A stretch of DNA of 64,000 nt. Origin: Candidatus Woesearchaeota archaeon (GTDB lineage: Archaea; Nanobdellota; Nanobdellia; Woesearchaeales; SKIA01). This document shows positions 37,049 to 50,868 of this stretch, one piece after another. The stretch lies in assembly GCA_046704725.1 (NCBI GenBank), contig JBJKRI010000003.1, positions 32,001 to 96,000 of the forward strand, given 5' to 3'. The stretch's first letter is position 1. Every line of letters starts with the position of its first letter. The translations under genes were made by a program, and so were the position numbers. The notes beneath the pieces were generated by a model, which made no database searches, was not told the origin of the DNA, and worked only from the letters and a program-made list of their open reading frames with translations.

Positions 37049-37855
37049 TTACGCCTTCACTTTCTTCATCTCTTTCCACGCGAGCTCGAAGTACTCCTCG
37101 AGCGCCGACGCGAAAAAGGGCGTGTTGATCCAGATGCCGACATCGTAGGTCGGGTGGATCTCTTCGTCGTCCATGATCATGAACACGAGTTCCTGTCCGT
37201 CCACGATGACGAAGCGGGCCCGGGTCTTGCTCTCGCGCACCTCTGCGATGCCTTCGAGCTGCTTGGCCACCTTCCGCGTCTCGGCGTTCATGGGAGCCGC
37301 GATTCGGATGGTCACGCCGCGCTTCTTGATCTGTTCGAGCACGGGCTGCAATCCTTCGGTCTTGCGCATGAATCCCTGCGCCGTCGTCGCGATGGTCACG
37401 CTTTTTTCGGCGCCGCGGATGACAAGCTCGAGATGGTTGTACAGGTTGTGCCTGCCCTTGAGCGAACCGGAGAGGTCGCTCGGCTCGACGAGCTCGACCC
37501 CCTGCGTGTGCAGGTTGTTCAGCTCCTGGATGATATCGGTATTCTTGAGATCTTCCAAGCGTCGGACGTTCTCGTCCGCCTCTTGGCGCACGTTCTTCTT
37601 CACGCGCTCAAGCACCTCTTTGGGCGACACGGCGATGTACTTGATGGGCTTGCCCAGCTTCATCACCACGAAGCCCTTCTTCTCGAGGCTCTCGAGGACG
37701 TCGTATGAACGCGAGCGTGGGACGTTCGCGATATCAGACAGTTCGCCCGCCGTCGAGACGCCGCGCGATAGCAGCGCCGTCCAGATCTTGACCTCGTAGA
37801 GGTTCAGGTTGAAATAGCGGCGTAGCTTGCTCAGAAACTCTTCTTTGACGATCAT
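37049..37855 (-). CDS. TrmB-family transcriptional regulator
   Basis: LNLYEVK, VPRSRSYDVLESLEKKG, PIKY; C-terminal PLD-like domain. Confidence 0.93.
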   Translation of the reverse strand: MIVKEEFLSKLRRYFNLNLYEVKIWTALLSRGVSTAGELSDIANVPRSRSYDVLESLEKKGFVVMKLGKPIKYIAVSPKEVLERVKKNVRQEADENVRRLEDLKNTDIIQELNNLHTQGVELVEPSDLSGSLKGRHNLYNHLELVIRGAEKSVTIATTAQGFMRKTEGLQPVLEQIKKRGVTIRIAAPMNAETRKVAKQLEGIAEVRESKTRARFVIVDGQELVFMIMDDEEIHPTYDVGIWINTPFFASALEEYFELAWKEMKKVKA

Positions 37856-37924
37856 TGCAGTTTTACCCCCTTGAAGGGAACTCACCCCTTACTGCGACGA
37901 CAACCCCTCCCTGCTATAAATATG

Positions 37925-38773
37925 TTACTGTCTTGCTGCGGTGACGCCTTGGGATTGCTCCAAGGTGATGATGGTGAACTCCTCGTTCGGAAGAGTGACG
38001 CGCCCCAACACCTTCCCGGTGATGAGCCGCTCGAACCACTCCCGAGGACGTAACGGTTTCTTCTGCCCGACGCTCAGGGTCGGAAAGCTCGTTACCAGGA
38101 TGCGCGCAGGGATGCTGTCGAGCAACTCCGCCGTCACATCGTGCCGCAATTCCTCGAGGCTGTCGAAGAGCTTGAACGAGAAGGCGACATCCGCTCGTGG
38201 AAGGGTCGCCACCGTATCCGGGTCGGTCAGGTCCACGCAGTGCTCGGAGTGCTCCACACCCACCGCTTCGAGGAAGCGTCCGACACGCTCCAGGTCCTGG
38301 CACGCGATGTCCGCCGAGTGGTATGCGGGCCTGCCTGGCAGGAACGGATACGCGAACGGATTGAAGCCGCATCCGAGATCCAGGACGCTCTGTGGCGTCC
38401 CCGTGACGCGGAACAACTGGTGATAGAGGAATGCGTAATAGGAGAGACGTTCGGCGCTCGACCGGTGCAATCCAAGCACGGCTCGCGCACGTTCTTCTGT
38501 CGGCTCGTTGATGAGCGCGTCCACCAACGCATCACGCTTGGCGCCGTACTGCGCGGTGAAGAACACCCCGTACACCGTACGTAATATTGCTCGTACTTCT
38601 GAGCGCAACCGCTGGAAGGCCTTCTTTCTCGTGAATCGTGATGGGTCCTTCTCGAACTCCGCCCGCACGTCCGGGTGCTTTCCCAGCCACGCGTCGAGGA
38701 TGCGTTTGGCGAACGGCCGCGATATCCCTTTCAGTTCTTTCTTGTCGAGCACGAGCTCGAGCAGCGCTACCAT
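37925..38773 (-). CDS. ArmA/Rmt/Sgm (FmrO)-family 16S rRNA methyltransferase homolog
   Basis: LHRSSAERL (cf. HxSTxERL), VLDLGCGFNPF, FSFKLFDSLE, VTSFPTLS, NE. Confidence 0.85.
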   Translation of the reverse strand: MVALLELVLDKKELKGISRPFAKRILDAWLGKHPDVRAEFEKDPSRFTRKKAFQRLRSEVRAILRTVYGVFFTAQYGAKRDALVDALINEPTEERARAVLGLHRSSAERLSYYAFLYHQLFRVTGTPQSVLDLGCGFNPFAYPFLPGRPAYHSADIACQDLERVGRFLEAVGVEHSEHCVDLTDPDTVATLPRADVAFSFKLFDSLEELRHDVTAELLDSIPARILVTSFPTLSVGQKKPLRPREWFERLITGKVLGRVTLPNEEFTIITLEQSQGVTAARQ

Positions 38774-39786
38774 CGCAGCACTCCGGCCACGCCGCCGAGG
38801 GGGTCGAGCTGGCCTGTCGCGTGCCGCACGACATGCACTTCGGCCCCGGTCTTCCTCGCATTCTCCATGAGCGCGTCCAGCTCGGGATACCACCCTTCCT
38901 CCCGTGCCTTCGCGATGAGCGTGCCGCTCACGACCAGCGTCTCCACCTGACCGACCATCGCTTTCTCCGTGCACTCGTCGCGCCCATAGCACGCCTTGTC
39001 CTTGGCGATCGCCGCGAGGACGCGTTCCACGAGCATCCCTTCGGTGCGGGCCCTGTCCGTCTCCAGCGCTTGCTCCACTTCTGGCCGCTTGAGCGCCTCA
39101 CGGACTCCTGCTTCGCCGCCGGCGCTGACCGTGGCGAGCGTGAGCTTCTTCCGTTGCGTTTCGGGCAACGCGTTGCGCAGGTAGTCCGTCCAGAAGGCAG
39201 GGCTCGCCGCGATGATGGATTGGTATGCATTCCGCCCGTCCAGCTCCATGACAGCGGCGGAGAGCGTCTTCCAGAAGTCCTCCGCGCCCCCGCCGGGCGC
39301 TTTCTTGACGACATCCCCGGACAATGTGGTGATGACCTCGTGCCCTTTCCGTGTCAGGTGCGCGAGCGTCGCGCTCTCGCGGTCGAACACCACGAGCAAT
39401 ACGTTGATCGGCTTCGCTTTCGCCGCTTCTTCCATGCGCTGCCTGTTCTCGGCGTCCCAGTCCTTGATGATGGACAGCTCGGTCCCGGGCGTGACCGCGA
39501 TGCTGTGGTGGTCCCCGAAGCTCACGAGGTCCTCTGGTCCTTCAGCGATCGTGCCTTGCACGCGCAGCACGTCCGTCTCGAGCTCGGTCTTCGTCACCAC
39601 GACGGTGAGGGTCATGGGTTTTCGCACTTGCTTGGTCTTGTCCGCTCCCACCGCCACCTTGCGTTCGGTACGCGCCCGTACCTTGTCCCCTTCGGCGATG
39701 ATGTGCGAGAGCTCCCACAGGTCGTCGGCCGATTCCGCACGGACGCGTATCAGGCCTTCTCTCGGCGTTTTCTGCAGAATGCGCAT
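38767..39786 (-). CDS. pelA: pelota (aPelota/Dom34) ribosome rescue factor
   Basis: DDLWELSHII..GD, LRVQGTI, HHSI, LGGVAGVLRW. Confidence 0.95.
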   Translation of the reverse strand: MRILQKTPREGLIRVRAESADDLWELSHIIAEGDKVRARTERKVAVGADKTKQVRKPMTLTVVVTKTELETDVLRVQGTIAEGPEDLVSFGDHHSIAVTPGTELSIIKDWDAENRQRMEEAAKAKPINVLLVVFDRESATLAHLTRKGHEVITTLSGDVVKKAPGGGAEDFWKTLSAAVMELDGRNAYQSIIAASPAFWTDYLRNALPETQRKKLTLATVSAGGEAGVREALKRPEVEQALETDRARTEGMLVERVLAAIAKDKACYGRDECTEKAMVGQVETLVVSGTLIAKAREEGWYPELDALMENARKTGAEVHVVRHATGQLDPLGGVAGVLRW

Positions 39787-39836: not shown

Positions 39837-40970
39837 ATGGATTGGCGGAGACGGGCCCAGGCGGGAGCAGCGGTGCTCATCGCCCTAATCGCTGTCCTTA
39901 TCATCATGTACGTGCTCTTCTTGCCGCCGGCCGACCGTGCTGTGCTCCTCAACGAGACCTCGCCCGCGACCGCGGTCAACACGACGGGCTCGAACGTGAT
40001 CTTCCAGACCGTCCCGACCGTCGCGCAACAGCAAGGTCCGGAGACGCATGGCATGCCGCCGTTCACCGTCCGGACCCAGACCAGCGGCAACGTCCTCGCG
40101 GATCGCTCGTCCCTATCGGTCTCTCGCACCGCTTTCTCCAACAGTCCCGAGACCGTCGTATTTGATATGCCTTCCAGCTCGTCGAATCCTCTCCTCAGCT
40201 TCACGGCTTCCTCTTCGACGGGCGGGTTGCGCGTCCTGCTCAACAACGTCTCTATCTTCGACGCGGTCATACAGCACCCGCAGGTCGCTCCGATACAGCT
40301 GCCTGCTGGTATGCTGACCTCGCATAACACACTCACCTTCGAGGCTGATCCCGTCGGCTTCGCGATCTGGCAGAGCCACCAGACGAACCTGGTGAACGTG
40401 CGCGTCACCGCTGATGTCACGAGCTTCGCGCAGGCCGGCCAGACCCAGCGCATCGCCATCACCGACCCCGCATCCATCCAGTCCGCCGGTCTGGTCTTCG
40501 TGCCCGACTGCCCGCAGAAGCAGGGCCGCCTGACGGTCACCATGAACGGCGAGACGATCTACAGCGGCTTCCCCGACTGTGGCATCCCCGTGCATGTCGA
40601 GCTCGCGCAGTCGCACATCAAGGACGGCGAGAATGTCCTGTCCTTCTCCGTCGGCAAGGGCGAGTACAGCATCGACCAGGCGTCGGTGAACGTCCTGCGC
40701 CAGCAGCAGAACACGCAGAAGTCCTTCACCATCAGCCAGAACCTCCTCAGTCAGGTGGCTGCGCAGCAGCGACCCATCCTCTTGCGTCTTGCCTTCGCAC
40801 AGCCCGAAGCGCAGGGCGTCATCATCCTCAACGGCCAGCAGCTCGCGTTCCGAACGCACCAGCAATCGTTCGCGGCCCCGATCACGCAGTACCTGCATGT
40901 GGGCAGCAACACGATACAGGTCGCGCAAACGAGCGTCGGCATCGTCTCGCTCAGCGTGCTCTCGGGCTGA
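39837..40970 (+). CDS. surface protein with class III (pilin-type) signal peptide
   Basis: MDWRRRA/QAGAAVLIALIAVLIIMYVLFLPP followed by beta-rich domains. Confidence 0.8.
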   Translation: MDWRRRAQAGAAVLIALIAVLIIMYVLFLPPADRAVLLNETSPATAVNTTGSNVIFQTVPTVAQQQGPETHGMPPFTVRTQTSGNVLADRSSLSVSRTAFSNSPETVVFDMPSSSSNPLLSFTASSSTGGLRVLLNNVSIFDAVIQHPQVAPIQLPAGMLTSHNTLTFEADPVGFAIWQSHQTNLVNVRVTADVTSFAQAGQTQRIAITDPASIQSAGLVFVPDCPQKQGRLTVTMNGETIYSGFPDCGIPVHVELAQSHIKDGENVLSFSVGKGEYSIDQASVNVLRQQQNTQKSFTISQNLLSQVAAQQRPILLRLAFAQPEAQGVIILNGQQLAFRTHQQSFAAPITQYLHVGSNTIQVAQTSVGIVSLSVLSG

Positions 40971-41037
40971 AGAGGTGGGAACCACAGTGACGTCGAAGAC
41001 GCTTCAGGACAGTCCGCACGCTCGGGGTGAGTCGTAG

Positions 41038-42747
41038 GTGGCTTTCGAGGCTTTCGGTCACCGCGCCCCCACCGGCCATGATCCGGTGGACCGTTTCCAC
41101 GAGCAGGTCGGGTCGGCGCAACTCTTCATTCTCGTCGTGATCACGGTGTTCACGTTCGGCTGGGACCTGTGGGTGAACAACTTCCGCCGTCTCGGGGGCT
41201 CGACCGCATCGAACATCGCGTTCTTCTTCATCTACCTGCTCGTCGGCATCATGCTCTACTGGTTCATCAATGGGAACCTCTCGAGCTGGGACCCCAAGAC
41301 ATTCTGGTTCATCGTGCGCCGGTTCGCTTTCGTGTTCTTCGTGCCGTACATCTTGCACGCCATCAGGCAGCCCTCGCTCACGGGTTACGCGAGCTTCCTC
41401 CCCGTTGTCGGGGCGTACCTGCTCGCTATGGTGACAAGCGCGTATCTTCCCTTGATCGTCATGTACTACGCCGGCTTCACGCACTACGTGCTCGACCAGG
41501 CGAGCCATCGCTGGAAGGCGGCGTACTACCTCAACAACCTCATTACGCTGTTCGTCATCCTGTTGATTTTCGTCCCGCTTTTCACCGCGCTCGCCTCCTC
41601 GCCGCAATTGCAGCGGTACGGTGTGTCGGGGGAGCAGGTGCCCGGTTTCTCGCAGATGTTCTCCGACTCCTGGCACTTCATCACAGGAACGTATCATAAG
41701 GTGGTCAGCGGCGTGCAGAACAAGGTGAACCAGACGCTCCAGCCGATCACGTACACCGGCACGGTCGAGCAGAACCAAGGAGCCCAATTGGGTGTCTTCA
41801 TCACTGACGTCAATCCGATCAAGGACGTCTTTGTCATCGACCAGGCGAAGGATGGCACGCGCAGCATCGGCCAGGACAAGAACGTGCAGTTCTTCGGCAC
41901 GGTGAAGGCCCGCACGCTCGCGAACGACTTCCCGCTGCAGCTGAGTTGCCTGTACACTTGGCAGGGCGGGAAGCAGCCCGTCACTGTCCCTGCGCAACCG
42001 TCGCACCTGACGGTGCCGTTCACAGGGAGCAATGGCCTTGAGCAGTTCCCGTTCAACTGCAGGATCCCCATGAGCTCGTTGCCGTACGCGGACGCGAACG
42101 GCCTGAGCGGCCAGTTCTGGGTGCGCGCCAATTTCTCCTTCGACACGTGGGGGTATGTCACCTTCACCTTCATGGACCGCCAGCAGATGACCGCCTTGCT
42201 CCGTGACGGGAAGGATCCCGCGACATACCTCGGGCTTCCTTCCAGCATGCCTATCGCGAAGTACACGCCCGGTCCCGTGTCGCTGGGTATGGCAACCATG
42301 TCGCAGCCTATCGGCGTGAATACGCAGGACCCCTCCTCGAACGTCTTGCCGAGCTTCGGAGTGACCTTGTCCAACGCGTGGGCCGGCCAGGGCAACATCA
42401 CGCATATCGCGCGAGTCATCCTCCAGGTGCCCGATCCCATGCAGCTCGACCCGAACAACTGCGCGGGACTCGACTTCAAGCACGTGGATGTCTATGCGCA
42501 GGCCGGGCCGACGCCGTACGGGAACGTCACGCCGGGGTACACCTGGTACGTGTTCGACGATGTGGGCACGCCGGGCGCCACCTATCTCACGATGACCTGT
42601 CCGCTCAAGCTGAAGGACGGGAAATCATGGTCATCCCTGCTCGGGCCCGACCTCTCGAGCCAGCAGTACACGCTGGTGGCGCGAACGACGTATGACTACC
42701 TCCTGCAGCGCACCGCGCCAGCGCAGTTCCGGGTGATGCCCAAATGA
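41038..42747 (+). CDS. multi-TM membrane protein with large extracellular beta-rich domain
   Basis: About 5-6 N-terminal TM segments; TPGPVSLGM, FGVTLSN, terminal YDY. Confidence 0.8.
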   Translation: MAFEAFGHRAPTGHDPVDRFHEQVGSAQLFILVVITVFTFGWDLWVNNFRRLGGSTASNIAFFFIYLLVGIMLYWFINGNLSSWDPKTFWFIVRRFAFVFFVPYILHAIRQPSLTGYASFLPVVGAYLLAMVTSAYLPLIVMYYAGFTHYVLDQASHRWKAAYYLNNLITLFVILLIFVPLFTALASSPQLQRYGVSGEQVPGFSQMFSDSWHFITGTYHKVVSGVQNKVNQTLQPITYTGTVEQNQGAQLGVFITDVNPIKDVFVIDQAKDGTRSIGQDKNVQFFGTVKARTLANDFPLQLSCLYTWQGGKQPVTVPAQPSHLTVPFTGSNGLEQFPFNCRIPMSSLPYADANGLSGQFWVRANFSFDTWGYVTFTFMDRQQMTALLRDGKDPATYLGLPSSMPIAKYTPGPVSLGMATMSQPIGVNTQDPSSNVLPSFGVTLSNAWAGQGNITHIARVILQVPDPMQLDPNNCAGLDFKHVDVYAQAGPTPYGNVTPGYTWYVFDDVGTPGATYLTMTCPLKLKDGKSWSSLLGPDLSSQQYTLVARTTYDYLLQRTAPAQFRVMPK

Positions 42748-43646
42748 GACGCACGCTCGTCCTCCTCATCGGGCTTCTCGTGCTCGCCGGCTGCGCGCAG
42801 CAGGCAAAGACGACGCCCTTCACGCTGACGGGCACCGACGGCGTCACGCTCACGAACGTCTACGCGCCCAAGAACGTCTACGCCGGCGAGGACTTCTCCT
42901 TGAGCTATGACCTCAAGAACGCAGGCATCACGAACATCACTTCGGACAATCCCGGCCATCTCATCGTCTCGTGGGACAAGCTCTACACGATCTACAATGG
43001 GAGCGTCTCCTCGTCGGGCGCCGACACCTTCACGCTGCGCGGGAAGGATCTCTATGAGGATGGGCAGACCTCCTACGTGACCCTGTACTTCACGGCGAAC
43101 CAGTTGCAGCGCAACAGCCAGCAGGTCACAACGCCGATCATGCTCACCGTCTGCTATCCCTACGCCTCGGACATCACGACGCAGGTCTGCATCGAGCAGA
43201 CCCAGCGCGTGGACCAGGGCGCCGTGGCCTGCACGCCCGCACCGGTCCATCCGGATTCCCCTGGCGCGCCCATCGGCGTCAAGGACGTGGAGGTCCGCAC
43301 CCAGCGGGTGCAGAGCGGCAACCAGTTGCTGCTCCTGCCGCAGTTCCGCATCACGCTCACCAATTATGACAATGGTATCCCGTCTATCGGCGCGTGCGAC
43401 GATCCGAACGCGCAGCTCAATGCCGCGCTCGTCTCGGCCACCCTCCTCAACCAGCAGCTCGACTGCGGGAGCGGCCTTGTGCATTTCACCAACGGCGACG
43501 CGTTCATCCTCTGCTCTGTCCCGCCGTCGCATCCCGTTTCCCGCGGCGTCGGGAACTTCATCAGCCTGCTCTCCATCCACGCGTCCTACACCTATCGCCA
43601 GAGCGACAAGACGGAGGTGACCATCCTCAACAATGGTCTCCAGTAA
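42744..43646 (+). CDS. predicted lipoprotein, surface paralog family
   Basis: LAGC lipobox; CYPY...VCIE, GAPIGV, terminal YTY. Confidence 0.85.
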   Translation: MRRTLVLLIGLLVLAGCAQQAKTTPFTLTGTDGVTLTNVYAPKNVYAGEDFSLSYDLKNAGITNITSDNPGHLIVSWDKLYTIYNGSVSSSGADTFTLRGKDLYEDGQTSYVTLYFTANQLQRNSQQVTTPIMLTVCYPYASDITTQVCIEQTQRVDQGAVACTPAPVHPDSPGAPIGVKDVEVRTQRVQSGNQLLLLPQFRITLTNYDNGIPSIGACDDPNAQLNAALVSATLLNQQLDCGSGLVHFTNGDAFILCSVPPSHPVSRGVGNFISLLSIHASYTYRQSDKTEVTILNNGLQ

Positions 43647-43677
43647 GGGTTTTATAGCGGCGTCGCGCCAAGCGCTC

Positions 43678-45075
43678 ATGCGTCCCTCACTGTTCGCCCT
43701 CGCGGCGCTCCTCGTCCTCGCCGGCTGCTCGTCGGTATTGCCCACCGGAACGGGCTCTGGCTCGGGCGTCGGTGTCGTCACGACCATCGCGAACGCACCG
43801 TCCATCACCGACGCGTACTTCACCCTCAACTCGAAACCCGGTCAGACTCTCCCCCAACAGCTCCAGTCGTTGGGTCAGGGGGATCCCGTCCATCTCTTCG
43901 ACATGAACCTCGTCGTCCACGACGAGGGATACGCCGATTCTCTCACCGCGCTGTATATCTCCGGGTACGACCCGAGCCTTTTCGCCGTCGTGCCGCTCGG
44001 TCCGTACCTCGCGCAGAGCAAGACGCGTTACTGTTATCGTGACGTCACCCTCGAGTCCGACAGCACGTGGAGCGCGAATGTCTTGTGCGAGGCTGGTGAC
44101 CAGGTCTATCTCGGCGGCGGCTACACGTCCGGCTCGAACGGCGGTTTCTCCGTGAGCGCGTACAATGCGAACGTGGCCAAGTATCTCGATTCCCTCGTCT
44201 CCCTCATCAAGGGCGGGCAGACCTCCGTCTTCGAGAAGTATGGCTTGTTCCAGAACATGAGCGTGACCTGTTCGGCGCCTACGTCGGGTTCCTCGCAGTA
44301 CCAGAAGGGCTGCCGCATCAGCAGCCCCCTCGGTGCGTTCTACTATAACCGCGCCTCCCAGGGCGCCTTGGCCCTGGCCTTGTACGGCGATTCCGTGCGT
44401 AACTGCCAGAACGGCTGCATCCTCGTGCCGAGCCCGCGGCTTCCCGACCAGTTCTTGTCGGGCAACACCGCGCAGTATCCTGGCGGCGAGGCGGCCAATG
44501 TGGATCTTGGCGTCTACATGGACCGTTCGCGTTGGCCCGCGAACCTCAATGACCATCAGCAGCTCTTCCAGGTCACCGCTTGCTCCTTGTACACCACGTA
44601 TGCTACGCCGACGGTCTGCATCGACCCGAACCCCGCCACGAGTGATGGCGAGGTCTGCAGGCCGGGCATCCTGAAGATGCAGTCCCAGCCCGCGCCGGTC
44701 TCTATCACGAGCATCGACGAGGTCAATCAGGGCCCGCGCGTGATGTTCACCATCCACGTCAAGAACGAGGGCTCGGGCACGGTCTTCGACCCTGGCAGCA
44801 TCGATTATTGCGCGCCGTCCGCGCCGGATTCCATGGCCAGCCAGCGCCGCAACGAGGCCAAGATCGTCGACGCGCGCGTGCTCGGTTCGCTCAAGGCCAT
44901 GGATTGCCGTGACGGTATCATCCATTTCGTGAACGGCCAGGGCCAGGTGACGTGCTTCTATGACTTGCCGCCCGAGAGCATCGGCCGCCCTGCTTACCAG
45001 ACCACCGTCAGCTTCGAGATCGCCTACATCTATAGGAATATCCAGACGGTGGAGACGACGATCCACCGGACATGA
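43678..45075 (+). CDS. predicted lipoprotein, surface paralog family (with insertion)
   Basis: LAGC lipobox; TATA at about 43650; CSLY...VCID, PAPVSI, KNEGSG, YIY. Confidence 0.85.
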   Translation: MRPSLFALAALLVLAGCSSVLPTGTGSGSGVGVVTTIANAPSITDAYFTLNSKPGQTLPQQLQSLGQGDPVHLFDMNLVVHDEGYADSLTALYISGYDPSLFAVVPLGPYLAQSKTRYCYRDVTLESDSTWSANVLCEAGDQVYLGGGYTSGSNGGFSVSAYNANVAKYLDSLVSLIKGGQTSVFEKYGLFQNMSVTCSAPTSGSSQYQKGCRISSPLGAFYYNRASQGALALALYGDSVRNCQNGCILVPSPRLPDQFLSGNTAQYPGGEAANVDLGVYMDRSRWPANLNDHQQLFQVTACSLYTTYATPTVCIDPNPATSDGEVCRPGILKMQSQPAPVSITSIDEVNQGPRVMFTIHVKNEGSGTVFDPGSIDYCAPSAPDSMASQRRNEAKIVDARVLGSLKAMDCRDGIIHFVNGQGQVTCFYDLPPESIGRPAYQTTVSFEIAYIYRNIQTVETTIHRT

Positions 45076-45133
45076 GTTCTCTTCACTATGGAAGATAAAA
45101 AGGATTAAATACTTTTACCACCATACAGTGAGT

Positions 45134-45706
45134 ATGTTTCGTACCTCCATGGTGCTGTTGGCGCTGACGCTCGCGTGCATCCCGCTCGTGAGCGCCAGTC
45201 CCATCCTGCAATACACCGGCTATGGCCCCGGCCTGTTCGGTATCGGGGACTACAACGCCCTCAGCGTGCAAGGCAACGGCTACAGCACGGGCTTCTACAC
45301 CTCACCAGACAACGCTTATGTCTACAGCACGAGCACGGGACCCGGGCTCAATTATGGCGTGAGCTTCTCGCGCAACTACTACACCCAGTACAACACCTAC
45401 CCTGACCAGAACATGAACTACCGCACGATCGGTTACGGCAACTGGCAGCTCCAGAGCGCCTCGGTGAGCTGCGCTGACTGCGGCTATAACGCCTACATGG
45501 GCTTCAACCCGTACACCCGGACCTACGGCATCGACGCGCAGATCGGCGGCTACCCCAACTCTTACGGACCGGGCTACCTAGGCTACACCCAGAACCTCGG
45601 CCAGGGATTGTACGACACGGGCATGAGCGCCTACGGTTGGACCCAGCCCTACTACCCCTCCACCCCGAGCGCCTACACCGGCTGGGGATCGAGCTACTAT
45701 TCGTGA
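45134..45706 (+). CDS. secreted Tyr/Gly-rich low-complexity protein
   Basis: Signal peptide ending VSA; mature part dominated by Y, G, S, T, N. Confidence 0.75.
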   Translation: MFRTSMVLLALTLACIPLVSASPILQYTGYGPGLFGIGDYNALSVQGNGYSTGFYTSPDNAYVYSTSTGPGLNYGVSFSRNYYTQYNTYPDQNMNYRTIGYGNWQLQSASVSCADCGYNAYMGFNPYTRTYGIDAQIGGYPNSYGPGYLGYTQNLGQGLYDTGMSAYGWTQPYYPSTPSAYTGWGSSYYS

Positions 45707-45775
45707 AGCGTACCACTGTGGGATGCTCGCGCGCCTGACGCAACATTTAAAAAGCGCTTTTCCCGGTTCTCAGGC

Positions 45776-46804
45776 ATGAGGCGCGCCCTTCTGGCCATCC
45801 TTGCCATCGCACTCGTCGCGTTGGCAGGCTGCAGCACACAAAAGCCGCAGACCCCGAACCTGGCGCAGCCATTCATCGGCGGCACGGGGTCCCTCGCGAT
45901 CAGCTATCCGCCCGGTATGCCGCCGAAAGAGATCTTCGACGCGGGCCAGACCAAGTTCAGCATCGGCGTGCTCATGGAGAACGTCGGCGAGAGCGCTGTC
46001 GGCGTCAACACTCCCAATCCCTACGGCTATGTCGAGCTCATCGGCATCAATCCCCAGCAGTTCGGCAAGAACCCATCGGACATGCGCATATACTTCGACC
46101 AGGCAAATCTCCAGCTCAAGCCCGCACGCCGCGGCTATGACGGCAGCGTCGTGCCGGGCGACTCGGGCATGATCGAGTTCAGCGGATTGTCCTATCTCCC
46201 GAACCGCTTCGGCAACACGAACGTCACCGTGCGCGCCAACGCCTGCTACGAGTACCACACCTACGCCGACGCGCAGGTCTGCATCAAGGACAACGTGCTG
46301 GAGAATCCCACCGACGCGACCATCTGCGTCCTCAACGGGGCAAAGCAGGTCTCGAGCAGCAGCGGTCCCGTCCAAGTCACTGGCCTGACGGAGAACCCCG
46401 CCGGCTCGAACAAGATCCAGGTCACCTTCACCGTCGACAATGTCGGCAAGGGCATGGTATTCCTGCCGCCCACCCAGCAGGGCATCAGCTCGCACGGCGA
46501 CGCCTGCGTCGAGAGCGCCGGCGCCAATCCGTACCAGAACGCGGCCCTCGCGAAGGTCAGCCTCAACGGCATGGTCGTCAACTGCCCGCTCTTCGGTGGC
46601 GGCTCGCAAGGCATCGTGCACATGTACCAGGGCTCGCCAGCGACCATCTCGTGCACCATCACGACCGACCCGACGGCCGGCCGTATCTACACGGATAGCC
46701 TGCAGATCACGCTCGACTACACCTACCTGGAGTGGATAGACACGCCGATCCTCGTGCGTGACACGAACGTCGGCTTCACCGAGCCCGGCACGCAGACGCA
46801 GTAG
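45776..46804 (+). CDS. predicted lipoprotein, surface paralog family
   Basis: LAGC lipobox; CYEY...VCIK, SGPVQV, DNVGKG, YTY. Confidence 0.85.
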   Translation: MRRALLAILAIALVALAGCSTQKPQTPNLAQPFIGGTGSLAISYPPGMPPKEIFDAGQTKFSIGVLMENVGESAVGVNTPNPYGYVELIGINPQQFGKNPSDMRIYFDQANLQLKPARRGYDGSVVPGDSGMIEFSGLSYLPNRFGNTNVTVRANACYEYHTYADAQVCIKDNVLENPTDATICVLNGAKQVSSSSGPVQVTGLTENPAGSNKIQVTFTVDNVGKGMVFLPPTQQGISSHGDACVESAGANPYQNAALAKVSLNGMVVNCPLFGGGSQGIVHMYQGSPATISCTITTDPTAGRIYTDSLQITLDYTYLEWIDTPILVRDTNVGFTEPGTQTQ

Positions 46805-46806
46805 CT

Positions 46807-47757
46807 CTACTTCAGCATGAACTGCGCGAGCAACGCTTCGAGCTGGACGAATTCGTCGGAGCCCTCGACCATGCGGAACTCGGCTTCGCCGCAGGCGTTC
46901 ACCAGTGCGAGCTTGCGATCGTCCGGCAACTCCAGGTCCCAGACGGTGCGTTGTACCTGCGAGACGACGTCGAGCCCGGACATACCGTAGTCGAGCATCG
47001 TCTTGAGCAGCGTGTCGCGCGCTTTGAGAAAGTCCCCCTTGCCCGCGAGCTCGAGCACTTCTTTGAGCTCTGCCGGCCGCGCTATAGAAGCCATCTGGTA
47101 CACGCCTTTCTCGGTGACGGTGTCGCTCGTCACCGCCACGGACTGCATGATGTTCTCCAAGCGTCGTACGTCGCCGTGCGACACCGTGCACAGCGCTTCT
47201 TTCGCGTCCTTGTCGACACTGAGCTTCTCCTTCTTCGCTATCGCGTCGATGATGCCGAGGATGTCCTCTTTCGGCAACGGCTTGAACTTGAAGACCGCGC
47301 ACCGGCTCTGGATGGGGTCGATGATCTTCGAGGAGTAGTTGCACGACAGGATGAACCGGCACGACGAGGTGTAGTTCTCCATCGTCCTTCGCAATGCCTG
47401 CTGCGCTTCCCGCGTCAGTGCGTCGGCTTCGTCGAGATAGATGATCTTGAACGGCACGTCGCTCATGCTCCGTGTCCGCGCGAAGTCCTTGATGGTGTTT
47501 CGCACGACGTCGATGCCGCGCTCGTCCGAAGCGTTCAGCTCCAATGTCGAGTCGCGCCAGTTCTCGCCGAACAATTGCCTCGCGACGACCAATGCGAGCG
47601 TCGTCTTGCCAACGCCTGCAGGCCCGACAAAGAGCAGATGGGGCATGTTCTTGGCCTCCACGAACGCCTTGACGCGGGCGACGATGTCTTGTTGCCCGCG
47701 CATCTCCGAGAAGTCCTTGGGGCGGTATTTCTCGGTCCAGATGAGCTCGTGCTCCAT
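46807..47757 (-). CDS. rfcS: replication factor C small subunit
   Basis: WTEKYRP, GPAGVGKT, LNASDERG, LDEAD, IQSRC; no intein. Confidence 0.98.
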   Translation of the reverse strand: MEHELIWTEKYRPKDFSEMRGQQDIVARVKAFVEAKNMPHLLFVGPAGVGKTTLALVVARQLFGENWRDSTLELNASDERGIDVVRNTIKDFARTRSMSDVPFKIIYLDEADALTREAQQALRRTMENYTSSCRFILSCNYSSKIIDPIQSRCAVFKFKPLPKEDILGIIDAIAKKEKLSVDKDAKEALCTVSHGDVRRLENIMQSVAVTSDTVTEKGVYQMASIARPAELKEVLELAGKGDFLKARDTLLKTMLDYGMSGLDVVSQVQRTVWDLELPDDRKLALVNACGEAEFRMVEGSDEFVQLEALLAQFMLK

Positions 47758-47812: not shown

Positions 47813-48130
47813 CTACGCCACGCACGCGCCCTGGCTGCAGCCGTTCTTGCAGGTCTTGACCAAGCGCTCGGTCTGCTGCGCGTCGCAACGCGACGTGCAC
47901 GTCCCTTTCTGTCCCGTGCAGACGTTCGCGTAGTAGCCGCGCCAGACGTTGCCGTCCTTGCAGTACGCGCTGCCGTAGAATCCTGACGGTCCGCAGTCGC
48001 TGTTCGTCTTGCACGTGACCGCTGTTGTTCCGTCGCAGGCCGTGCCATGCGGCCACGCCAATGCCATGATGATAGCGACAGCGGCGAGGAGCACGACGAG
48101 TACCGCGAGATGGCTGATCGTGAATCGCAT
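47813..48130 (-). CDS. small membrane-anchored Cys-rich protein
   Basis: N-terminal TM helix, then CKTNSDCG...YC...CKNGCSQGAC. Confidence 0.8.
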   Translation of the reverse strand: MRFTISHLAVLVVLLAAVAIIMALAWPHGTACDGTTAVTCKTNSDCGPSGFYGSAYCKDGNVWRGYYANVCTGQKGTCTSRCDAQQTERLVKTCKNGCSQGACVA

Positions 48131-48136
48131 GAGAAC

Positions 48137-48418
48137 CTAGATGATGTCTTCTTCGGCCACGACGAGGAAGTCTCCCATCGCGATGACCGCGGAGAACGGG
48201 ATGAGCAGGTCGCCTTCGCGCGAGCGCTCGAGATCCATGCGCTCGGTATAGGTGGTCGGGTTCGACAATACCAGGTGGATGAGCTCTCCGGAGCGGGTCT
48301 CGAAGACGATGTCGCCGACCTCGCCGAAGCGCTTGCCGGTCTTGCTCACGACGGTCTTGCCGAGAAGCTGCTTGGAGAAGCGCTTCTCATCTCCATCTCC
48401 TGTCTTGACGTCTACCAT
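48137..48418 (-). CDS. PRC-barrel protein (CdpB-like)
   Basis: LLGKTVVSKTGKRFGEVGDIVF, IPFSAVIAMGDFLVV. Confidence 0.9.
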   Translation of the reverse strand: MVDVKTGDGDEKRFSKQLLGKTVVSKTGKRFGEVGDIVFETRSGELIHLVLSNPTTYTERMDLERSREGDLLIPFSAVIAMGDFLVVAEEDII

Positions 48419-48557
48419 CCACTTCGAATGGCAACACCGGATATTTAAAGGTTATGTTCGGGTGCCGGGCAGTCGACCATCGGGGTCTTGTGGCTTCTCT
48501 TATTGAGATATAGTTCAAAATAGTTAACCTTTTCTAGTTAACTAACTATCTATTGCT

Positions 48558-49817
48558 GTGGATGTCATAAGGGATATTTGGGAGCTGTATGGAGTGCGCA
48601 GCGACCCTTTTTCAACATCCCCCATTTTGGTGAAGGGAGGAAATATTCCTCCAGATTGTTTTGTAGGTCGTGAGGATGCTATCCGAAGGCTTGGTAAAAT
48701 CATTGGATCCTCGGGGGGATCGAGAACATTGGTATTTGGGGAGACTGGCGTCGGGAAGACCACTTTTGTCAATATTGTCAGGCGGCAGGCAGTGCTAAAC
48801 GGGTATTTTAGTCCATTTAAAGAAATCGCAGTTCAAAGTGACTGGTCTCCTGCTGATTTCATTATGAACACTCTTGCAGCAATCTCTGCAAGCATGCGGG
48901 TGATGGAGCAAAGGCCCATCAGCGACAATACTTGGAACAAACTGGAATCATTGGTTGAACTGAGTTTTTCTGACGGGTCGTTCGGTATTGATGTTGCAGG
49001 TTTTGGAGGGAGTTTTTCGAGGGATAGAAAATCTGGTCGAGCGACGAATCAGCAACTCATGAATTTTCTCAGCGATTTGGTACAGGAAATTCGACAAGAA
49101 ACAGGGCATGACGTTATTGTTCACTATAACAATCTTGAACTATTGGATGAGCGCGATATCAGACGGCTGTTCGAGAATTTGCGAGACTTCTTCCAAACTC
49201 CTAATGTGCACTTCGTTTTTGTAGGAAACCTGTCTGTGAAAGGATACATGCAGAGTATTACTCGTTTTGCGTCAACGATGACAGATACACCCATTCATAT
49301 TGAGACTCTGAATCTTGATGAAATGAAGGAGATTTTAACACGAAGGTTCAATACTCTTCAAATTCCAGGATTGCGGCACGTGCTTCCATATACTCCTGAT
49401 TGTCTTGAAGCACTATTCGATCTCTGGGGTGGTAATGTTCGAAACATCCTGAATAGTCTCTCCACAGCAGTACAAGAACTTACAGAAGAAAAGCCTGTGT
49501 TGATTGATCGAAACTCCTTGGCTGTCACGCTGAACAGCGTTCTTGAAAAACGGTATTTCTCGAAACTTACCCCTCGCCAGAGGGATGTATTGTTGGAGGT
49601 TGTCAAGCGAGAGGAAATCACCAATAAAGGATTATCTGAAATTCTCAAAATGCCTGCATCCCAAGTTTCGACTAACACCAAGGACCTTCTTGAAAAAGGT
49701 TGTATTTATGTAAGGAGGAAGTCCGGCAGAAATAAATTTTGGACGGCCGATTCAATATTAAAGTGGCATCTTCTGAAAGAATCCGATTCATCTCAGAAGA
49801 CGCTAACGCATTACTGA
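48558..49817 (+). CDS. P-loop ATPase with C-terminal winged HTH (AT-rich gene)
   Basis: FVGRE, GETGVGKTT, GNVR, C-terminal LTPRQRDVL...ASQVS...LLEKG. Confidence 0.85.
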   Translation: MDVIRDIWELYGVRSDPFSTSPILVKGGNIPPDCFVGREDAIRRLGKIIGSSGGSRTLVFGETGVGKTTFVNIVRRQAVLNGYFSPFKEIAVQSDWSPADFIMNTLAAISASMRVMEQRPISDNTWNKLESLVELSFSDGSFGIDVAGFGGSFSRDRKSGRATNQQLMNFLSDLVQEIRQETGHDVIVHYNNLELLDERDIRRLFENLRDFFQTPNVHFVFVGNLSVKGYMQSITRFASTMTDTPIHIETLNLDEMKEILTRRFNTLQIPGLRHVLPYTPDCLEALFDLWGGNVRNILNSLSTAVQELTEEKPVLIDRNSLAVTLNSVLEKRYFSKLTPRQRDVLLEVVKREEITNKGLSEILKMPASQVSTNTKDLLEKGCIYVRRKSGRNKFWTADSILKWHLLKESDSSQKTLTHY

Positions 49818-49857
49818 TTCCGCCATCTTCATAAGGCAGCGCTTCCCACACCAGTCC

Positions 49858-50868
49858 ATGACGCCAGACGAACGCTACGCGCTGATCGCGCGCAACACCG
49901 AGGAGATCGTCTCCGAAGACGAGCTCAAGGCGCTCCTGAAGGAGAAGCCGCATCCGCACGCGTATATCGGCTTCGCCTGCACGGGCCGCATGCACATCGG
50001 CTACTTCGTGCCCATCCAGAAGCTCGTGGATTTGCTCAAGGCGGGCTGTGCCGTCACGTTCCTCATCGCCGACCTCCACGGCTATCTCGACGATACCAAG
50101 ACGCCCTGGGAGCTCTTGGACGCGCGCGTCGCCTATTACACGGCCGGCGTGAAGGGTATCCTCGCGGCATTGGACGCGCCCGTGGACAAGGTCAAGTTCG
50201 TGCGGGGAAGCGATTTCGAGCTCGACGGAAAGTACATGCAGTCCGTGCTCCGCATGGCCGGCGACGTCACGCTCAACCGTGCCAAGCGGGCGGCCTCCGA
50301 GGTCGTGCGTTTCAAGGACGACCCCAAGCTCGGCGGTTTCGTCTATCCCCTCCTCCAGATCGAGGACGTCTACGCGTTGAAGGCGGACATCGCCTTCTCG
50401 GGCATCGACCAGCGCGGCATCTACATGCTCGGCCGCGACCTCGCTCCGCGCATGGATCGGGACAAGTACGTCTGCGTCTTCACGCCGCTCATACCGGGAC
50501 TCACAGGCCAGAAGATGTCGGCTTCCGAGCCGGCTTCCAAGATAGACTTGCTCGATGACGCGAAGACCGTCACGCGAAAGGTCAACAAGGCCCATTGCCC
50601 TGCGAAGGAGAAGGAGGGCAATGGCGTGCTCGCCTTCTGCGAGTATGCGTTGTTCCCGCACTTCGACGGCAGGCCGCTGCGTATCGAGCGTCCCGAGAAG
50701 TTCGGCGGCAACGTCGATTTCGTCTCCTACGCAGAGCTGGAGAAGGCGTTCTTATCCGGAGAGCTCCATCCCGCCGACCTCAAGGCCGCTGTCGCAAGAG
50801 AGCTCAATGCCTTGCTCGCTGTCGTGCAGCAGCACATCCCTCCTGACCTGGTCGACAAGGCGTATTAG
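49858..50868 (+). CDS. tyrS: tyrosine--tRNA ligase
   Basis: YIGFACTGRMHIG, IADLH, YPLLQ, GIDQR, KMSAS. Confidence 0.96.
   Translation: MTPDERYALIARNTEEIVSEDELKALLKEKPHPHAYIGFACTGRMHIGYFVPIQKLVDLLKAGCAVTFLIADLHGYLDDTKTPWELLDARVAYYTAGVKGILAALDAPVDKVKFVRGSDFELDGKYMQSVLRMAGDVTLNRAKRAASEVVRFKDDPKLGGFVYPLLQIEDVYALKADIAFSGIDQRGIYMLGRDLAPRMDRDKYVCVFTPLIPGLTGQKMSASEPASKIDLLDDAKTVTRKVNKAHCPAKEKEGNGVLAFCEYALFPHFDGRPLRIERPEKFGGNVDFVSYAELEKAFLSGELHPADLKAAVARELNALLAVVQQHIPPDLVDKAY

Follow-up and report, generated by a model that had tools for sequence, protein, structure and literature searches.

What do six consecutive genes for exported or membrane proteins, lying together between pelota and rfcS, do for a Candidatus Woesearchaeota archaeon? 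The question was raised by a stretch of 64,000 nucleotides (nt), hereafter the window, from contig JBJKRI010000003.1 of assembly GCA_046704725.1 (positions 32,001 to 96,000; G000:C3:32001-96000 in our numbering), which belongs to a genome of 1.18 Mb that is 99.7% complete and has a G+C content of about 61%. Our analysis showed that the genes, here named G1 to G6, contain a conserved and syntenic set coding for predicted extracytoplasmic proteins, that one module, judged by profiles and structure models, is common to the lipid-anchored and the membrane-anchored members of the set, and that orthologs of the membrane-anchored member, G2, carry fused murein hydrolase domains. We would give about an even chance to the reading that these proteins form a lineage-specific, multi-subunit envelope complex, which serves as a platform to contact and cut bacterial peptidoglycan.

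Open reading frame (ORF) calls and translations confirmed what had been noticed in an earlier reading of the sequence alone (the sequence-only reading), namely six co-oriented exported ORFs between pelota and rfcS, and Pfam identified both flanking genes. The features, with lengths in amino acids (aa), are as follows.

38767-39786, - strand: pelota (Pfam eRF1_1, eRF1_2, eRF1_3), the divergent upstream flank, outside the system.
39837-40970, + strand: G1, 377 aa, pilin-like N-terminus and three repeat domains.
41038-42747, + strand: G2, 569 aa, GTG start, five hydrophobic segments and a tandem beta-sandwich.
42744-43646, + strand: G3, 300 aa, predicted lipoprotein with lipobox LAGC (C17), tandem beta-sandwich.
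43633 or 43678 to 45075, + strand: G4, 480 aa (ATG at 43633) or 465 aa (Met at 43678), lipobox LAGC.
45134-45706, + strand: G5, 190 aa from MFRTSM..., signal peptide, low complexity.
45776-46804, + strand: G6, 342 aa, predicted lipoprotein with lipobox LAGC (C19), two beta-sandwich domains.
46807-47757, - strand: rfcS (replication factor C small subunit; Pfam Rep_fac_C and AAA), the convergent downstream flank, outside the system.

The stop of G2 and the start of G3 overlap by 4 nt, and G3 and G4 overlap by 14 nt if G4 starts at 43633; the start at 43678 puts the lipobox Cys where it stands in G4 orthologs, which are 301-490 aa long. G5 is a lineage-restricted insertion outside the conserved core: it is rich in Tyr, Gly, Asn, Ser and Thr, has no Pfam match, and gave BLASTP matches in just two same-genus loci (E 1e-6 to 1e-7), while its slot in one same-family locus was occupied by a positional ORF of 197 aa.

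G3, G4 and G6 are clear paralogs, and their similarity is beyond chance. BLASTP gave 3e-10 for G3-G4, 5e-7 for G4-G6 and 0.024 for G3-G6 (full length), and HHalign with profiles of 16-19 orthologs each gave probabilities of 99.9-100% with E-values of 1e-47 (G3-G4), 1e-35 (G3-G6) and 2.5e-31 (G4-G6). In each of the three, a short basic, hydrophobic signal is followed by an LAGC lipobox that agrees with the pattern [LVI][ASTVI][GAS]C, and the lipobox Cys was invariant in 31 G6-family sequences and kept in 16/17 G3 and 17/18 G4 sequences. Lipoproteins are reported to be prevalent in DPANN archaea (PMC12462473), and the bacterial-type lipobox of the AliA/AliB-pathway lipoproteins treated there is like that of G3, G4 and G6, although the parts of that paper which bear on the matter concern biogenesis and not this family. 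The six cysteines of the mature part, a C-Y-x-Y motif and the terminal Y-x-Y were invariant or almost so across orthologs. The sequence-only reading had described an ordered series of motifs shared by the three lipoproteins, and every string that it quoted was found, that is, the Cys motifs CYPYASDITTQVCIE in G3, CSLYTTYATPTVCID in G4 and CYEYHTYADAQVCIK in G6, followed by GAPIGV, PAPVSI and SGPVQV and the terminal YTY, YIY and YTY; but the pattern F-x-(I/V)-x-N-x-(G/D)-x-G was exact only in G6 (FTVDNVGKG) and loose, with two additional residues, in G3 (FRITLTNYDNG) and G4 (FTIHVKNEGSG).

G4 has an insertion of about 150 aa in its N-terminal half, which is confined to this family-level lineage, and its C-terminal domain is like that of G3 and G6. 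The best-conserved paralog is G6, and its AlphaFold2 (AF2) model from 31 sequences reached a predicted local distance difference test score (pLDDT) of 91.4 and a predicted template modelling score (pTM) of 0.85, with a beta-sandwich at about 40-139, a long hairpin at 148-171 and a second beta-domain at 188-328. A conserved N-x-G-E motif in the N-terminal domain of the lipoproteins presumably resembles that of CARDB/DUF11/BatD-type immunoglobulin-like (Ig-like) domains; the Pfam match to BatD was seen with G3 only, at E 0.15 and 13.2 bits against a cut-off of 24.1 bits, which falls short of membership in such a family. On a quick-search tree of 55 lipoproteins, in which three rows from locus L026 are long branches, the proteins grouped by their position in the cluster, with 4 label changes (minimum 2) against a mean of 26.5 for shuffled labels and 0/200 shuffles as low. 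This clustering by position indicates that the three lipoprotein positions are three old groups, so the triplication would be old and its order maintained.

The same module probably recurs in G2 on a different anchor. G2 has hydrophobic segments at 24-42, 59-77, 91-109, 123-141 and 168-186, then a linker helix, and then a tandem beta-sandwich at about 252-344 and 359-568 with conserved C304, C341, C475 and C521 and a terminal YxY. With an odd helix count and the N-terminus inside, the C-terminal half of G2 would therefore lie outside, which fits its conserved Cys pairs. GPVSLG, FGVTLSN and YDY, which had led to the proposal of a Cys-poor version of the module, are all present in G2. BLASTP gave no match between G2 and G6, and HHalign aligned G2 and G3 colinearly, with a probability that rose from 39% for a 15-sequence G2 profile to 84.7% (E 6.7e-6, 153 columns) for a 44-sequence profile; the aligned motifs were F-N-F-x-T/C-Y-x-Y-x-T, P-I-G-V/P-V-x-V, G-V-T-L-x-N/F-x-I-x-x-N and the terminal Y-x-Y. 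The G2 profile remained weak when aligned with G4 (24%) and G6 (11%). The AF2 model of G2 (pLDDT 85.9) showed a helical membrane bundle, the linker helix, a beta-domain at 252-344, a hairpin at 359-380 and a beta-domain at 414-568, which is the layout of beta-domain, long hairpin and beta-domain that was also modelled for G6, and the two models had the fold neighbours 7tvz_E, 8oxv_A, 5ow3_C, 5cl2_B, 2co7_B, integrin legs and RbmA in common. The proposal for G2 is thus probably right, judged by the profile match to G3 and the AF2 layout, and the more general idea of one tandem beta-sandwich carried by different anchors fits both models, with profile similarity that was strong among G3, G4 and G6 and moderate for the C-terminus of G2. 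Taken together, these data point to a disulfide-stabilised tandem beta-sandwich displayed outside the cell, in G2 on a five-helix anchor and in G3, G4 and G6 on predicted lipid anchors.

The proteins could not be assigned to a named family, as the sequence-only reading had also stated. Pfam and NCBIfam gave nothing at or above cut-offs for all six proteins, and the sequence-profile search of the PDB gave 0 matches for the G6 family, matches at E>=0.31 only for G1, and for G2 only matches of transmembrane composition (E>=0.0016; G-protein-coupled receptors, heliorhodopsin). With the G6 and G2 models Foldseek returned only generic multi-Ig matches (query-normalised template modelling score, TMq, <=0.21), and VIA-align 2 returned single beta-sandwich domains, the best being Z 7.0 (root-mean-square deviation (rmsd) 3.0, 88 aligned) for G6 and Z 9.0 (rmsd 3.0, 109 aligned) for G2, both in the range that the tool calls a common arrangement. 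No fold target spanned both beta-domains plus the long hairpin. For the membrane part of G2 only designed or FAT helical bundles were returned, at an uninformative Z<=7.4, and the beta-domains filled the match list. The Ig-like surface modules that are already known (macroglobulin/transglutaminase C-terminal domains, glycosidase accessory domains, HAP2/fusexin domain III, chaperone-usher proteins) are like the G2 and G6 domains when these are taken singly (Z 6-9), but none of the matches extends over two domains with the long hairpin, and their Foldseek TMq did not exceed 0.21. The homolog search gave 15 matches for G6 (one named 'Candidatus Woesearchaeota archaeon') and 13 for the G1 profile, none of them functionally named, and the ESM Atlas neighbours of G1 and G2 were only 'hypothetical protein' clusters of Woesearchaeota or Nanobdellota, bar one labelled Methanobacteriota. 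G2 was also considered as a glycosyltransferase, an AglB-like protein or an archaeosortase, which was rejected, there being no family match and only the C-terminal beta-domain of AglB among the weak Foldseek rows.

To see how widely the cluster occurs, we used a sample of 201 genomes from across the phylum, which all belong to one class (154 from the same order and 47 from other orders); class-specificity is meant within this sampled class, and phyla outside it were not searched. The G6 protein had matches in 39/41 relatives, usually two to four in tandem, and the lipoprotein profile was found in 189/201 genomes (152/154 in the same order, 37/47 in other orders). G1 was found in 194/201 genomes (154/154 and 40/47), mostly as a single copy. 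The G2 profile was found in 153/201, with misses concentrated in a few families (e.g. family f41, where it was found in 2/22), which are read as divergence, that is, as 'not found with this query'. The gene order pelota, G1, G2, G3, G4, G6, rfcS recurred in loci of many families. In 20 loci taken from different families, three of which end at contig edges, BLASTP found G6 in 19, G3, G4 and rfcS in 18 each, G1 in 14, pelota in 13 and G2 in 11, and in five more loci the G2 slot held a positional ORF that BLASTP had missed; this ORF had one hydrophobic segment in two of the loci and three or more in the other three. A hand tally of the 119 genomes for which the best G1 and G6 matches were both listed showed 89 pairs no more than 10 kb apart on one contig, 8 that shared a contig at a greater distance and 22 on separate contigs. 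In other orders G1 and G6 were about 3.3-3.6 kb apart, as if the cluster had a compact form there with one lipoprotein. The genes therefore occur together and in a conserved arrangement throughout the order and in a large part of the class. None of the three outcomes that the sequence-only reading had named as refuting its proposal was seen: the ORFs do show profile similarity, no characterised family matched, and the genes do occur together in related genomes.

The strongest clue to function came from the long relatives of G2. The family had 1659 representatives (50% identity) at E<=1e-3 and 868 at E<=1e-30, many of them longer than the G2 of the window, and in 6/8 long representatives a Pfam SLT domain followed directly after the beta-module. 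The strings E-S, G-L-M-Q and Y-N-x-G, which we take to be the SLT motifs, were kept in 5/6 of these domains. A hidden Markov model (HMM) built from the six SLT domains matched 38/150 listed G2 representatives, that is, 24/44 of those above 900 aa, 13/52 of those with 701-900 aa and 1/54 of those with at most 700 aa. Of the 59 long representatives without a match to this HMM, 54 were then scanned with Pfam (P0038, P0046, P0080, P0156 and P0175 were left out), which gave SLT in 4, NLPC_P60 in 3, Amidase_2 in 2, and Amidase_3, Peptidase_M23, Peptidase_M15_4 and Glucosaminidase in 1 each; the other named domains were a beta/gamma-crystallin or I36 domain and a DUF4112, 1 each. Hydrolase domains of at least seven families are thus found on G2 orthologs. 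The fusions were also seen at the locus: the G2 that lies between G1 and G3 has SLT in locus L022, M15_4 in L013 and nothing in two others, and in L025 M23 is found on a G2-like ORF that lies 5 kb upstream of the lipoproteins. By hand comparison, SLT and the in-cluster G2 shared one open frame in at least 9 sampled genomes, and SLT was present in 102/201 genomes against 0/4 archaeal control genomes. The repeated, independent fusion to seven mechanistically different families of murein hydrolase argues that the scaffold meets bacterial peptidoglycan.

The wall to be cut would not be the organism's own, because the genome of the window showed no penicillin-binding protein (PBP) transpeptidase, no GT51 transglycosylase and only one weak Mur_ligase_M match. 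Remodelling of its own wall was therefore rejected, as PBP transpeptidase and GT51 genes were not found in the genome. The genome does encode a 763-aa protein with M23 and SLT domains on contig C5, the N-terminus of which is MRRGQ plus a transmembrane helix. It is encoded at the end of a run of about ten co-oriented pilin-like ORFs ([KR][GA]Q plus a hydrophobic helix) at G000:C5:35278-45978 (L037:5279-15979), which is possibly a pilus-like locus with a murein hydrolase. Upstream there is a 1470-aa DUF7107 protein, and the small ORFs had no Pfam match.

Whether the subunits could bind each other was addressed by modelling a complex of the G2 C-module (236-569), G6 (30-342) and, as partner, G3 (22-300), each with its own alignment. 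The three runs scored 0.73, 0.51 and 0.64 (median 0.64) against 0.00 in all three controls; at least 27% of contacts were common to the runs, and the pLDDT of the partner was at least 79. The score mark is reached by 58/80 solved complexes and by 2/110 mismatched pairs, a calibration that holds roughly for these custom alignments. Because one of the controls swapped G2 alone, the scored contact is that between G2 and G3. The idea of a hetero-oligomer, put forward in the sequence-only reading, thus gained model-level support for the pair G2-G3 and none for G3-G6.

On the reading to which we give an even chance, the subunits would assemble around G2, as the frame overlaps of G2/G3 and G3/G4 and the modelled G2-G3 contact suggest. 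The assembly would be a platform that meets bacterial peptidoglycan, which is the likely sense of the interchangeable murein hydrolase domain at the end of G2 in many relatives. In this genome the cutting activity would be supplied by the separate M23+SLT hydrolase, which has an N-terminus like that of G1. The three repeats of G1 are the candidate glycan-binding part, and G1 may be processed by a peptidase. The likely use of the whole would be to attach to, or locally open, the wall of a bacterial host or prey.

Several results weigh against this reading. The G2 of the window has no murein hydrolase domain by Pfam and NCBIfam, and its AF2 model ends with the beta-module. Short G2 forms are mostly without a hydrolase, as the single SLT match among 54 representatives of at most 700 aa shows. 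Of the sampled genomes 99/201 had no SLT, yet nearly all retain the cluster; therefore, murein cutting cannot be the sole or obligatory role of the core, unless other hydrolase families fill in, SLT being the one family surveyed genome-wide. An abundant envelope anchor could be a merely convenient display for any exo-enzyme. LysM, SH3 and PG_binding domains were absent from every cluster protein in the Pfam and NCBIfam scans, and the galactose-binding-like jelly-roll assignment of G1 comes from sub-threshold matches. In the complex model the G3-G6 contact was unsupported and replacement of G2 took the score to 0.00, and the G2-G3 contact supports binding as a model score and not as a measurement.

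The most serious rival is that the cluster builds a structural envelope layer, be it an S-layer (surface layer), the anchoring of one or a pseudo-periplasmic scaffold, on which the hydrolases are opportunistic decoration; we regard this as unlikely, though a contender to be taken seriously. It would explain why the cluster is near-universal, single-copy and placed beside housekeeping genes, why its subunits are anchored by lipid or membrane, and why it persists in the 99/201 genomes without SLT. Ig-like beta-sandwiches occur in many archaeal S-layer proteins, which form lattices, are highly abundant and as a rule bear much glycosylation, and the domains of the cluster, being of this kind, count in its favour as well. 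However, the proteins carry few N-glycosylation sequons (1-5 N-x-S/T per protein), they are small (300-570 aa), and they form an ordered group of three old paralogs plus a polytopic partner and not one lattice protein; other large secreted proteins of the genome (1055-1216 aa) could be the S-layer. The G2 fusions also speak against mere decoration of a layer, since all extra named domains on G2, bar one DUF4112 and one of beta/gamma-crystallin type, are murein hydrolases, and these are from seven families. Among the three options that the sequence-only reading had left side by side, an S-layer, a pore or a host-contact organelle, the fusions would thus favour contact with a host or a bacterial wall and disfavour the S-layer and the pore.

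The N-terminus of G1 raises a further alternative, a pilus-like or bindosome-like structure related to type IV filaments (T4F), to which G2 and the lipoproteins would be accessory. G1 does begin with RRRA/Q plus a hydrophobic helix, as had been noticed (MDWRRRA/QAG), and the 20-residue helix is followed by a conserved LPPxxR and a low-complexity linker. The alignment of 15 orthologs showed M..[KR][KR][GA]Q, 5-8 small residues, a conserved 20-residue hydrophobic helix up to L-P-P-x-x-R and again a low-complexity linker; a [KR][GA][QT]-type motif was present in 14/15, and Y25, P30 and R34 in 15/15. The [KR][GA]Q motif of G1 also heads pilin-like ORFs elsewhere in the genome, although the hydrophobic core of G1 begins 5-8 small residues past the putative cut, later than in those proteins. 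This comparison came from a crude regular expression; ordinary signal peptides and ORFs that are probably spurious were among the 57 ORFs it picked out, and the comparison is taken solely as showing that the motif is common to these ORFs. A Peptidase_A24 gene lies at G000:C7:28264-28614 (57.5 bits, above the cut-off), and the genome has five matches to the T2SSE ATPase, on contigs C5, C4, C7, C2 and C6, none of them on the stretch of the window. No assembly ATPase or peptidase was found in or beside the cluster, in the window or in 20 relatives' loci, and a platform protein was likewise not seen there, no search having been aimed at the platform family. A class III signal on G1, as proposed in the sequence-only reading, is thus plausible at the level of the motif, but it comes without an ATPase or platform gene in the cluster.

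The rest of G1 consists of three tandem repeats of about 100 aa (~75-190, 191-290 and 291-377), related to each other by profile comparison (97.7% and E 2e-12 for the first and second, 65% for the second and third, 46% for the first and third), with a conserved Cys pair (C225, C248). Sub-threshold Pfam matches among the 15 orthologs were Glyco_hydro_2_N in 2, and a CBM-like domain (CBM, carbohydrate-binding module; 3.4e-4), BetaGal_ABD2 and Bac_rhamnosid_N in 1 each. G1 therefore appears to be a protein held by a pilin-like N-terminal helix and bearing three jelly-roll-like repeats. G1 also occurs, across several families, in a longer frame (about 520-610 aa), in relatives such as those at G049:C75:8789-9742 and G160:C10:4565-5524; such forms match only the first ~315-320 profile positions and so have a different C-terminal end, and one long representative (P0023, 587 aa) had no Pfam match. 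Of the three G1-like clusters that came nearest in the ESM Atlas, one, with 118 members, has a label that places it most often in Methanobacteriota; this may be an artefact of unclassified bins or may mean that G1 has relatives outside the phylum.

A filament is thus suggested by the motif and the highly conserved helix that follows it, by the pilin-like genes, peptidase and ATPase matches of the genome, and by a precedent in Sulfolobales, for which PMC13705601 describes, in the relevant passages, class III signals on non-pilin surface proteins. G1 is like those surface proteins and the bindosome in being a non-pilin extracellular protein with a pilin-type N-terminus, and a prepilin peptidase is encoded elsewhere in its genome, but G1 is not a solute-binding protein, genes of the Bas- or T4F-type for assembly are not nearby, and the cleavage of G1 is putative. 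After its helix G1 has a conserved Pro-Pro and a low-complexity linker in place of the helix-on-sheet head of a pilin, which looks more like a stalked anchor, and G1 is unrelated to the other five proteins (HHalign probability <=1% against the cluster proteins). With the ATPase, platform protein and peptidase not in or next to the cluster, and T4F said in the survey part of PMC13705601 to occur widely in most archaeal phyla other than Asgard and DPANN, we consider a filament improbable.

Still a little less probable is nutrient capture, in which the lipoproteins and the lectin-like G1 would feed a G2 channel or transporter with scavenged cell-wall or other glycans, for although an operon of lipoproteins with a polytopic membrane protein resembles binding-protein-dependent systems, G1 has its weak CBM/jelly-roll matches and hydrolase fusions would release substrates, Pfam and NCBIfam gave no ATPase or transporter family match, the five-helix membrane part of G2 is poorly conserved (one nearly invariant Pro in a 54-sequence alignment) and has non-transporter helical bundles (FAT domain, designed bundle) as fold neighbours at uninformative Z, and the lipoproteins are modelled as beta-sandwiches and not as the alpha/beta fold of solute-binding proteins. 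Both the pilus-like and the uptake readings are weaker than the structural layer.

Some features around the cluster were recorded in passing. The window contains zero tRNA genes and zero Rfam families. Upstream of pelota are a TrmB-family regulator and an FmrO-type rRNA methyltransferase (37049-37885 and 37925-38800, both - strand), and the TrmB gene stays in this neighbourhood in 9/20 relatives' loci. Just past rfcS, a 105-aa ORF (47813-48130, - strand) has one N-terminal hydrophobic helix, a Cys-rich tail (10 Cys) and no Pfam match. The stretch 48001-50000 has a G+C content of 0.486 against about 0.61 elsewhere and may be foreign DNA; it encodes a 419-aa AAA_16 ATPase with a MarR/winged-helix C-terminus (48558-49817, + strand) and a 92-aa PRC-barrel protein (48137-48418, - strand).

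Part of the picture drawn for the envelope complex is already in print. It has been proposed that the large SLT proteins found in Pace- and Woesearchaeota bind bacterial walls (PMC8204110, 2021; PMC9723730), GH23 genes are reported from metagenome-assembled genomes of Woesearchaeota (Vigneron et al. 2022, PMC9723730), homologs of peptidoglycan hydrolases are described as prominent in Nanoarchaeota (PMC12352652), and the idea of bacterial hosts or prey is likewise to be found in this literature. The SLT proteins of PMC8204110 and PMC9723730 agree with the G2 fusions in lineage, in the SLT domain and in the proposed binding or cutting of walls, and some of them may be long G2 forms. However, the passages of these papers that deal with them describe single proteins, and the five-gene cluster, the beta-module, the lipoprotein paralogs and the scaffold with seven hydrolase families are not described there; unlike the published proteins, the G2 of the window has no SLT. 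The cluster families may lie within 'Module 98' of PMC8204110, which is given there as 51 mostly unknown families common to Pace- and Woesearchaeota, and fam00969 may be the G2 family. Literature searches, which did not cover supplements, found no description of the cluster, its beta-module or multi-family hydrolase fusions on one scaffold. New here are thus the five-gene cluster, its common module and the fusions of G2 orthologs to at least seven hydrolase families.

VirB1 of type IV secretion and FlgJ of flagella are peptidoglycan hydrolases on bacterial envelope-spanning machines, and the likeness to G2 lies in a murein-cutting domain that is tethered to a membrane-anchored multiprotein assembly and cuts locally. 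The structural subunits have no homology with those machines. VirB1 and FlgJ open the wall of the cell that makes them, whereas no murein synthesis genes were found here, which points to the wall of another cell as the target.

Few uncultured archaea are as widespread as the Woesearchaeota and their relatives. This analysis defined five almost always present protein families that have no Pfam, NCBIfam or PDB relative, two of them with confident models, which turns the vague idea of DPANN archaea attacking bacteria into concrete, testable proteins and metaproteomic markers. If the cluster were purely structural, the main conserved envelope module of the group would still have been identified. 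In a bolder form, which we think possible but somewhat doubtful, the cluster would be the core host-engagement machine of the woesearchaeal and pacearchaeal radiation, in which G2, three lipoproteins and a pilin-anchored lectin, as a membrane-embedded hetero-oligomer, dock on bacterial peptidoglycan and present swappable, wall-cutting 'warheads'. If this is true, the near-universality of the cluster would imply that bacteria, and not archaea, are the hosts or prey of most of this very large archaeal group, and the proteins at the site of contact would now have been named.

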